Shown: piece by piece, positions 17,881 to 19,623 of the stretch
How positions within the stretch are numbered: position 1 is the stretch's first letter
Layout: every line of letters begins with the position of its first letter
Assembly: GCF_058153355.1 (NCBI RefSeq)
Contig: NZ_CM177019.1
Direction: 5' to 3' (one strand)
Length of the DNA: 64,000 bases
Program-made: the position numbers and the translations under genes
The notes under the pieces: model-generated
What the model saw: only the letters and a program-made list of their open reading frames with translations
Databases searched by the model: none
What the model was told of the DNA's origin: nothing

Positions 17881-19623
17881 TTATAAGCCTCCACCTTGTG
17901 GGAGACCAGCGTCATTACTATGTAGTTGTCGATGGCAGTTGGGATGGAGTAGGACTAAATTGCTCACATCATCGCTACCGCCAAGAGATTTCTTGAGCAA
18001 ATGATGAACATTCCATCCTGTATCGCGATTAATCGGTTGCTCACATAAAGGGCAGCGCGATCCTTGCCTTTTCCATATAGCGAGAATCCTTTTCTGCCCC
18101 TGTTGGGATTTCTTCCATGAGTAGTCCAGCCTTCTTTCGAAGTATGTTTCCCACTCGGGATCATATGGATTTGCCGTTCCCTTTATTTTTATATAGCGAT
18201 TAATATGGATGTCGCTGGCCCGGGACAGAACATATTTCCTACCCTCCGGATCGACTCCATAAAATCGACCATGACACATTTTTATTGTCGTGTGGTACTT
18301 TCGGAAGATCCATCTCCGGCCTTTGCCGGGATGTCTCCTTCTGCACCACTGCCAGATTTTGCGCCAGATTTGGTTGTCGACATAGTTAAATGTCTCTGCC
18401 GATGCTACATGTTGGTGATAGTTTGCCCACCCGGTGATGATTGGATTAAGCAGATTTATTAGCACCCATGCAGGAACCGTTCGGTTACCTTCAATAGTCT
18501 CTCTGATCTTGCTAAGAAATTGTTTAACGTTTTTCTTGGCTGGTCTGATTATGAGTTTTCTACCGAAGCGTCGGACGTGCTGCCCAAGGAAATCAAATCC
18601 GTCAGTAATGTGAGTGATGACCGTTTTCTCTTCGGATAACGTCAGCCCTCTTTCTGCAAGAAATGATTTCACCAACGGAAGAACATTCTCCTCCAGAAGT
18701 TCTTTCGACTTTCCGGAAATGATGAAATCATCAGCATACCGGACGAAGTGAACCTGATGTTTCCTGAATGTTTTTGAGCGTTTCGGACCAAAGCGATTTT
18801 GCAGCAGTCTTTCCAGTCCATCCAGGGCCATGTTTGCCAGAACTGGAGATATGATTCCTCCCTGGGGTGTACCCGAGAGAGTTTTGCTGAATATGCTTTT
18901 TTCGATGATCCCGGCTTTCAACCAATTACGGAGTATTTGCTTGTCCATAGGAATATTTTCAAGCAGCCACTCGTGGCTAATGTGTTCAAAGCATCCTTTA
19001 ATATCGCCTTCCAGAACCCATTTCGAGGCGTTCCGGGAACTATACATATTACATACCTGTTGAATGGCGTCAGCCGTACATCGCGCTGGTCTGAAACCAT
19101 AACTGTTGTGATCTGCATTAGTTTCCGATACAGGCTCCAATCCCAGCAGATGCAGGGCCTGCATTGCCCTGTCAAGCATGACGGGGATTCCTAATGGTCT
19201 TTTCTTGCCATTAGATTTGGGTATAAAAACTCTTTTTAGCGGTAGGGGCTTGTACCCTTTTCGCCTGAGTTTGAATATCGCTTCCCATTTTGATTCTGGA
19301 GTACTCCAGATTTGACCATCAACTCCGGGGGTTTTACGCCCGCTATTTTCCGTAACTCGTTTCACCGCCAGTGCTCTGGCGCTGAATGAGCGAACCAGCA
19401 ATCGTTGCAATCTACCGACTGTACGCCATTGCTGGTTACATGCCGCCTTTGCGATTCTTGTCTGTATGGTTTTAACGTGTTGATGGCATTTCTTCCAGTT
19501 AATGGAATGCCAACCTTTTCCGTTGATGACCGCAGTTACATTGTTAGATGTAATTTTCATACATGTCATCCAAAGAAACCTTCGCAGATGTTTCGCAATT
19601 AAAGACCAGATGGAAGTCAGCAC
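17881..19623 (-). CDS. Group II intron-encoded protein (reverse transcriptase / maturase / HNH endonuclease)
   Basis: 580-aa ORF with RT motifs (TPGVDG, RPLGIP, YGFRPARC, GTPQGGIISPVLANMAL, YADDFII, GFDFLG), X domain (GWANYHQH) and C-terminal HNH (CPLCEQ...HHLLKKSLGG...HPNCHRQLH). True start may be an internal Met (19569 or 19560). Confidence 0.85.
   Translation of the reverse strand: MLTSIWSLIAKHLRRFLWMTCMKITSNNVTAVINGKGWHSINWKKCHQHVKTIQTRIAKAACNQQWRTVGRLQRLLVRSFSARALAVKRVTENSGRKTPGVDGQIWSTPESKWEAIFKLRRKGYKPLPLKRVFIPKSNGKKRPLGIPVMLDRAMQALHLLGLEPVSETNADHNSYGFRPARCTADAIQQVCNMYSSRNASKWVLEGDIKGCFEHISHEWLLENIPMDKQILRNWLKAGIIEKSIFSKTLSGTPQGGIISPVLANMALDGLERLLQNRFGPKRSKTFRKHQVHFVRYADDFIISGKSKELLEENVLPLVKSFLAERGLTLSEEKTVITHITDGFDFLGQHVRRFGRKLIIRPAKKNVKQFLSKIRETIEGNRTVPAWVLINLLNPIITGWANYHQHVASAETFNYVDNQIWRKIWQWCRRRHPGKGRRWIFRKYHTTIKMCHGRFYGVDPEGRKYVLSRASDIHINRYIKIKGTANPYDPEWETYFERRLDYSWKKSQQGQKRILAIWKRQGSRCPLCEQPINRDTGWNVHHLLKKSLGGSDDVSNLVLLHPNCHRQLHSNDAGLPQGGGL

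Follow-up and report, generated by a model that had tools for sequence, protein, structure and literature searches.

An intact reverse transcriptase/maturase in a complete group II intron, probably retrohomed from a plasmid hok gene into a chromosomal REP element

An open reading frame (ORF) on the minus strand of contig NZ_CM177019.1 (assembly GCF_058153355.1) had been described in a preliminary description as a group II intron-encoded protein that retains all of its catalytic motifs. The whole stretch of 64,000 nucleotides that was analyzed is referred to as the window. The ORF is contained within a complete group II intron of 2,359 nt that is inserted at the 3′ end of a repetitive extragenic palindromic (REP) element between gdhA and topB. 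The sequence comparisons make it very probable that this is the functional-looking subgroup IIB1/CL1 protein of a hok-homing intron, and that the intron retrohomed from a copy in a plasmid hok gene into a REP site that mimics its usual target. The element is ordinary in kind and unusual in its landing site. An intact protein alone would be routine, and the context of hok homing and REP mimicry is of greater value. The locus would represent a natural, closely dated case of a plasmid intron escaping to the chromosome via a fortuitous sequence mimic, in which a donor-type copy, unoccupied sites, and the covariation that marks retargeting can all be seen.

Intron Boundaries and Chromosomal Landing Site

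The topB end of Escherichia coli Z0117EC0005 (locus L001) is 99.5% identical to the window, and its topB–gdhA spacer is 83 bp in length (4481..4563). In the empty-site comparison, the window spacer (17780..20221) is longer than this one by exactly 2,359 nt, and no target-site duplication is present. The boundaries of the intron are therefore more than a consensus guess, because the empty site in Z0117EC0005 is precise. The insertion point is the 3′ end of the REP element, GCCAGATGCGGCGTGAACGCCTTATCTGGCCTACGA^AAACTG, where the caret denotes the insertion point here and below. The intron ends, GUGCGAC at 20158 and CCCGAC at 17800, fit the GUGYG...AY rule, and the full-length matches in plasmids end at identical boundaries. 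The ORF sits in domain IV, between the matches to domain I (D1) and to domains V and VI (D5/D6). The junction strings that would mark insertions of the intron are NNNNCTGGCCTACGA plus GTGCGACAAGAAG and GCTGCTACCCGAC plus N20, and the exon–exon junction expected from ligation at the gdhA–topB site is ...CTGGCCTACGA-AAACTG. The features of the intron RNA, including the exon-binding sites (EBS), and of the flanking exons, including the intron-binding sites (IBS), are as follows.

17800..20158, minus strand: complete group II intron, 2,359 nt, 5′ GUGCGAC ... CUACCCGAC 3′
19959..20106, minus strand: domain I core (Rfam RF02012 group-II-D1D4-7, 112.5 bits against a gathering threshold of 34, E = 7e-23)
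19908..19904, minus strand: EBS2, CAGAG, with a candidate EBS2a A at 19910
19839..19844, minus strand: EBS1, UCGUAG, in the loop of hairpin UAUUCC/GGAAUA
17800..17876, minus strand: domains V and VI (Rfam RF00029, 65.5 bits against a gathering threshold of 40), directly downstream of the ORF stop codon
17874..17841, minus strand: domain V, with the AGC triad
17838..17802, minus strand: domain VI, with a bulged branch A at 17806 (bulged UA at 17807/17806)
20161..20194, minus strand: REP element GCCAGATGCGGCGTGAACGCCTTATCTGGCCTAC, the 5′ exon
20164..20159, minus strand: IBS1, CTACGA
20171..20167, minus strand: IBS2, ATCTG (position −14 is 20172)
17799, minus strand: IBS3, the +1 A
17732..17754, minus strand (the gdhA strand): terminator-like hairpin CCCGCC...GGCGGG followed by T7, downstream of the intron

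The intron is in the gdhA orientation, 63 nt past the gdhA stop codon (20222), and no terminator-like site was found on the gdhA strand between this stop codon and the intron. Because it is in the sense orientation and upstream of the sole terminator-like hairpin, the intron is probably transcribed with gdhA. If the hairpin at 17732..17754 is the gdhA terminator, then the intron would lie within the 3′ untranslated region of gdhA. The same hairpin is antisense within the last codons of topB, and the convergent topB and gdhA would therefore overlap at the transcript level. The exact 46-nt topB–gdhA junction is present in 18 of the 5,426 complete E. coli genomes, and the 3′ kilobase of topB is only 90–95% identical to that of most E. 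coli. Strain K-12 carries ynjI between topB and gdhA.

Homing into hok, Target Pairing, and REP Landings

The intron is found at full length in 20 plasmids of PLSDB, with 97–99.6% identity in E. coli and E. albertii and 77–80% identity in Salmonella, Citrobacter, and Enterobacter. In nearly all of these copies, the terminal part of a hok/gef toxin gene serves as the 5′ exon, and the joined exons restore a Hok protein that ends in ...(L/M)AYE(S/A)xK followed by the stop codon. Additional copies, obtained from an exact-protein look-up and a metagenome scan, repeat this pattern with PF01848 (HOK_GEF) upstream. The family naturally homes to the 3′ end of hok on plasmids, at codons (L/M)AYE^(A/S). 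Since this primary target is the toxin gene of a plasmid addiction system, carriage of the intron may affect plasmid maintenance. No description of a group II intron homing into hok, or of mimicry of REP by one, was found in literature searches, and an exact-pattern scan of the GTDB species-representative genomes with the 36-mer from the 5′ end of the intron returned 0 matches. A widespread F-plasmid intron, whose protein is 60% identical (L021 3556-3681, pFAM22871_1), lies outside hok, approximately 300 nt away from a copy of this gene on the opposite strand. The proximity to hok may be a wider trait of plasmid introns, or it may simply reflect the leading region of the plasmid.

In the family alignment, domain I has two variable patches, which correspond to EBS1 and EBS2. 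Their sequences and partners are listed below.

Intron positions 315-320: EBS1, UCGUAG or UCGUAA, pairs with target positions −6..−1, CUACGA or UUACGA
Intron positions 251-255: EBS2, CAGAG, CAUGA, or CAUAA, pairs with target positions −13..−9, CUCUG, UCAUG, or UUAUG

The G or A at the 3′ end of EBS1 covaries with C or U at target position −6, and 97% of the EBS1 cells are paired. For EBS2 against target positions −13..−9, 90% of the cells are paired and three pairs are changed on both sides. Over the 12 distinct combinations of site and intron, 91% of all cells form standard pairs, relative to 24–47% for slid partners. Both sides have changed in four of the pairs, and the observed covariation score was reached by 0 of 500 shuffles. 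The two sites lie where they would be expected in a IIB-type domain I, at intron positions 251 (EBS2) and 315 (EBS1), compared with 259–268 in Th.e.I3 (PMC8643678). The +1 nucleotide is A in all copies.

The sub-lineage of the window (EBS1 UCGUAG, EBS2 CAGAG) fits the hok allele AACTCTGGCCTACGA^A (also written as CTCTGGCCTACGA^A). The 3′ arm of the REP, TTATCTGGCCTACGA^A (also written as ATCTGGCCTACGA^A), provides 6 of the 6 IBS1 nucleotides, 4 of the 5 IBS2 nucleotides, and the +1 A. The hok allele and the REP arm are identical from −12 to +1. The EBS2a–IBS2a pair at the REP sites is a Watson–Crick A–T pair, and the data fit either a 7-bp extended EBS2 (CAGAGAA) or EBS2 plus EBS2a.

Members of the window sub-lineage were identified in three different chromosomal REPs, all with CTTATCTGGCCTACGA^A, at the gdhA–topB, leu-tRNA/rsmC, and ybaL–gsk loci. 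The second site is a bacterial interspersed mosaic element flanked by the leu-tRNA operon and rsmC (locus L011, from Logan run SRR31800506), for which the empty site in strain KE55 reads ...GTCTTATCTGGCCTACGA^AGGGCT. The third site, between ybaL and gsk, is occupied in at least two assemblies (L023, L024), and many complete genomes match its reconstructed empty site at 100% identity over 500 nt. The other sub-lineage occupies occasional non-hok sites with near-matching IBS sequences (L005, L033, L017). The 38-nt string comprising the REP and the target is unoccupied in 5,423 of the 5,426 complete E. coli genomes, with a median of 2 places per genome, and nearly every E. coli chromosome has one to five exact, unoccupied REP targets. 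We lean toward the view that a hok-homing CL1 sub-lineage, whose EBS1 and EBS2 are also compatible with the 3′ arm of a common E. coli REP variant, is now colonizing chromosomal REPs, at no fewer than three independent loci.

In one contig (L026, GCA_042204225.1), the intron is preceded by a hok 5′ flank and followed by the 3′ flank of the chromosomal gsk site. An assembly chimera across the 2.36-kb repeat is the simplest explanation; the alternative is recombination of plasmid and chromosomal copies (plasmid integration).

Recent Mobility and Alternative Explanations

Over the full 2,333 nt available for comparison, the window copy is 100% identical to the copy that resides in hok on a contig of an F-like plasmid (L013, GCA_043012465.1). 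It differs by 1 nt from the copy in the leu-tRNA/rsmC REP (L011), by 1 nt from that of L012, and by 10 nt from that of pRHB33-C08_2. Identical or 1-nt-different copies occupy four different sites. The ratio of nonsynonymous to synonymous substitution rates (dN/dS) relative to the related copies is 0.07–0.15, indicative of purifying selection, and the sole residue unique to the window protein, T267, is in the variable linker between motifs 4 and 5 of the reverse transcriptase (RT). The preliminary proposal of a recently active retroelement is supported by the empty site in a close relative, the identical hok copy, the 1-nt-different copies elsewhere, the low dN/dS, and the intact EBS–IBS pairing. 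At the sequence level, an intact protein and very recent mobility of the intron are supported, and the intron may still be active.

In the proposed pathway, a ribonucleoprotein from the hok-plasmid copy would have reverse-spliced into the REP of the gdhA–topB spacer. The HNH domain would then have nicked the bottom strand, and the RT would have copied the intron, which amounts to retrohoming into a mimic site. The resulting gdhA–topB copy, probably cotranscribed with gdhA, may still splice and move.

Several observations weigh against this interpretation. A chromosomal copy of the intron is present in 0 of the 5,426 complete E. coli genomes, two of which have plasmid copies at 97% identity, so invasion of REPs is rare. 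The EBS2a–IBS2a interaction is paired in 58% of the cells, mostly as G·U, although it is expected for IIB1 introns. The REP site is mismatched to EBS2 at −13, and IBS2 would fall in the REP stem in the RNA, which could hamper splicing. The G178A substitution in the window variant creates an A·C mismatch in a D1 stem and is flagged by Rfam. The basis of the class assignment, given below, belongs with these points.

The first alternative is that the copy is structurally intact and functionally dead, a recent fossil that is unable to splice or to move from its site. It draws on the G178A mismatch, on the mismatched and buried IBS2, and on the single copy visible in the window. However, the G178A variant also occurs in hok (L013) and in another REP (L011) with 0–1 nt differences; since the variant is found in hok and at two REPs, the substitution has not prevented movement. 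In addition, no disabling change was found in the ORF, D5, or D6. A dead copy is considered unlikely.

Decay does occur within the family. The 77%-identical hok copy on plasmids of Enterobacter sp. JBIWA005 (L009) has a disrupted ORF (464 aa from stop to stop, with no ltrA annotated) and is a decayed relative, in contrast to the window copy. The commonest variant of the sub-lineage carries C2261T (intron position 2261), a premature stop that truncates the protein at its C-terminus by five residues, to 557 aa (L002, L022-L028). Because this variant occurs in hok and in the ybaL–gsk REP, the extreme C-terminus appears to be dispensable. A contig consisting only of the C2261T intron was observed in 18 assemblies.

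The second alternative is arrival through recombination with a plasmid, either homologous or site-specific, or recognition of the REP hairpin as in subgroup IIC introns, rather than EBS/IBS mimicry. REPs are hairpins, and hok and gsk flanks are joined in the L026 contig. Nevertheless, hok DNA is absent from the flanks of the intron at all three REP sites, where every junction is nucleotide-exact. The primary hok site has no REP hairpin, yet it has TCTGGCCTACGAA in common with the REP sites, and the endonuclease (En) domain and the long EBS pairings are unlike those of IIC introns. Arrival by either route is regarded as improbable.

Encoded Protein, Class, and Start Codon

The ORF at 17881..19623 on the minus strand comprises 580 codons from a GTG plus a TAA stop codon. 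It is uninterrupted by a stop codon or frameshift, as had been claimed, and the stop-to-stop frame opens at intron position 527. The order of the Pfam domains is RVT_N, RVT_1, GIIM, and HNH; the last three are the profiles that had been proposed as a check, and all were matched. The functional-looking protein thereby combines RT, maturase X, DNA-binding, and HNH endonuclease parts. Each motif quoted in the preliminary description (YADD, GTPQGG, GWANYHQH, and a C-terminal HNH with Cys/His ligands) was found in place. The features of the protein are given below.

17881..19569, minus strand: intron-encoded protein, 562 aa counted from the conserved ATG
19560, minus strand: alternative start ATG, 559 aa, the choice of PGAP in close E. 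coli homologs
19623, minus strand: alternative start GTG, 580 aa, not conserved
19267..19512, minus strand: RVT_N (RT0/N-terminal extension; Pfam PF13655, 8e-32)
18574..19224, minus strand: RT fingers/palm, motifs 1-7 (RVT_1, Pfam PF00078, 2e-40)
18873..18856, minus strand: GTPQGG, inside the RT domain
18750..18712, minus strand: HFVRYADDFIISG, containing YADD at 18738..18727
18295..18528, minus strand: maturase X/thumb domain (GIIM, Pfam PF08388, 3e-23)
18432..18409, minus strand: GWANYHQH, inside the maturase X domain
17917..18054, minus strand: HNH endonuclease domain (Pfam PF01844, 8.5e-10), with both Cys pairs, HH, N, and H
Minus strand, HNH ligands: CPLC at 18054..18043, HH at 18006..18001, N at 17961, and NCHRQLH at 17940..17920
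19525..19570, minus strand: conserved hairpin resembling the domain IVa (DIVa) hairpin, whose 5′ strand contains ATG 19569 and which overlaps ATG 19560

The protein scores 371 bits against TIGR04416, the NCBIfam equivalog for group II RT/maturases, for which the cutoff is 300. The closest solved relative is the T.el4h (Th.e.I3) protein, PDB 6ME0, with E = 2.4e-187 and approximately 55% identity over 526 aligned residues. In a residue-by-residue alignment, the RT, X, and HNH residues of T.el4h are all conserved in the intron protein, and the loss of catalytic residues that would have contradicted the preliminary description is not seen. The matches to LtrA (ML class; PDB) and to the class C protein GsI-IIC are much weaker (E = 2.5e-39 and 5.5e-37, respectively). 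Both Th.e.I3 and EcI5 belong to subgroup IIB1 and encode CL1 RTs (PMC8643678). The intron protein is approximately 53% identical to that of the pO157-type plasmid intron (presumed, from plasmid size and host, to be EcI5) and 60% identical to that of the common F-plasmid intron, and the D1 family RF02012 is common to the three introns. The assignment of the intron to subgroup IIB1 with a CL1 protein, the class of EcI5, is well supported but not proven, and was made by best-hit similarity rather than from a formal tree.

The preliminary description had named membership in a non-intron RT family as the outcome that would refute it, and the protein gives weak subthreshold matches to models for retron St85 (50.5 bits against a cutoff of 235), Drt3a (45.6 against 200), Drt2 (28 against 390), and IscB-type HNH proteins. 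The scores for the retron, Drt2, Drt3a, and TIR-RT models range from 19 to 50 bits against cutoffs of 200–600, and the matches are 4- to 20-fold under their curated cutoffs, whereas that to TIGR04416 is above its own. Given also the Rfam-confirmed D1 and D5/D6 domains on either side of the ORF and the exact insertion, a retron or Drt identity was rejected, and there is scarcely any likelihood that the protein is a retron, diversity-generating retroelement, abortive infection, or Drt defense RT that resembles an intron protein.

The start codon had been left uncertain among a Met at 19623 and two internal Met codons, 19569 and 19560. Position 19623 is a GTG in the DNA rather than a Met codon; both internal candidates are ATG. 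In the relatives at 77–80% identity, the frame opens just 21 nt before a single ATG that is aligned with 19569, and the positions of GTG 19623 and ATG 19560 are occupied by GGG and AAG, respectively. Translation most likely starts at ATG 19569, which is favored because it is conserved in these relatives, unlike 19623 and 19560. The exact 562-aa and 559-aa products are recorded elsewhere, and identical proteins are already automatically annotated as group II RT/maturases. No exact record of the 580-aa product from the GTG start was found by protein look-up.

A check for a ribosome-binding site and a DIVa hairpin near the candidate start codons had also been proposed, and the outcome was mixed. 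The sequence GAAGG is found 9 nt upstream of 19569 in all members of the family. RNAalifold, applied to six members, provided a start-codon hairpin with two compensatory pairs (GAUGAC/GUCAUC vs GAUGGC/GCCAUC), in a comparison that covers two clades only and with both hairpin strands coding. The single-sequence fold around the start codons was no better than shuffles (z = 0.2). The predicted hairpin is only suggestive of a DIVa-like element. In Ll.LtrB, the DIVa hairpin with the start codon is reportedly the high-affinity protein-binding site.

Among known systems, EcI5 from plasmid pO157 of E. coli O157:H7 (PMC8643678) is similar in host genus, in being plasmid-borne, in its En-plus CL1-type protein, in recognition by EBS1, EBS2, and EBS3, and, for the pO157-type intron presumed to be EcI5, in RF02012 and the same D5/D6 model. 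It differs in the amino acid sequence of its protein, in its homing site, and in having an EBS2a–IBS2a pair that the window family does not clearly keep. T.el4h/Th.e.I3 of Thermosynechococcus (PDB 6ME0, 6MEC) is the relative whose RT, X, and HNH residues align, but it is cyanobacterial and thermophilic, with many chromosomal copies and other targets. Ll.LtrB (PMC6003770), in the relaxase gene of a lactococcal conjugative plasmid, likewise homes into a conserved plasmid gene and travels with conjugative plasmids; it belongs to the ML/IIA class and uses another host gene, and its LtrA protein is the weak match noted above. Subgroup IIC introns, which insert after terminator or attC hairpins, also end beside or inside palindromic intergenic repeats. 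According to one preprint, these introns recognize a DNA hairpin, use very short EBS pairings, and have no En domain (bioRxiv 10.1101/2024.12.23.630110). In contrast, recognition by the window intron is explained by a sequence match of 10–11 bp, and its protein has an HNH domain.

REPs are also used as dispersed chromosomal landing sites by insertion sequences, and IS1397 and ISKpn1 target REP elements. These elements are DNA transposons with transposases, whereas the window element is a ribozyme/RT retroelement for which the REP would be a secondary mimic site. ISPa11 is another REP-targeting insertion sequence, as cited in a preprint (bioRxiv 10.1101/527788). The window intron offers a testable model for the possible spread of En-plus IIB introns over dispersed repeats, and a possible EcI5-like, E. 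coli-native targetron scaffold.

A 115-aa ORF at 19544-19891 on the minus strand is inside the ribozyme (D1–D4) and shares sequence with the beginning of the gene for the intron protein. It has no Pfam match and is almost certainly spurious, although automated annotation lists it as a gene in other copies (L012, L037). Other TCTGGCCTACGAA-like sites in the window are no more frequent than expected by chance. A second REP of the same type (GATGCGGCGTGAACGCCTTATTCGACCTAC, 40571-40600, minus strand) abuts a match to the Rfam ES036 (CssrF) small RNA at 40528-40570, and its 3′ arm, TTCGACCTAC, is mismatched to the IBS2 of the intron.
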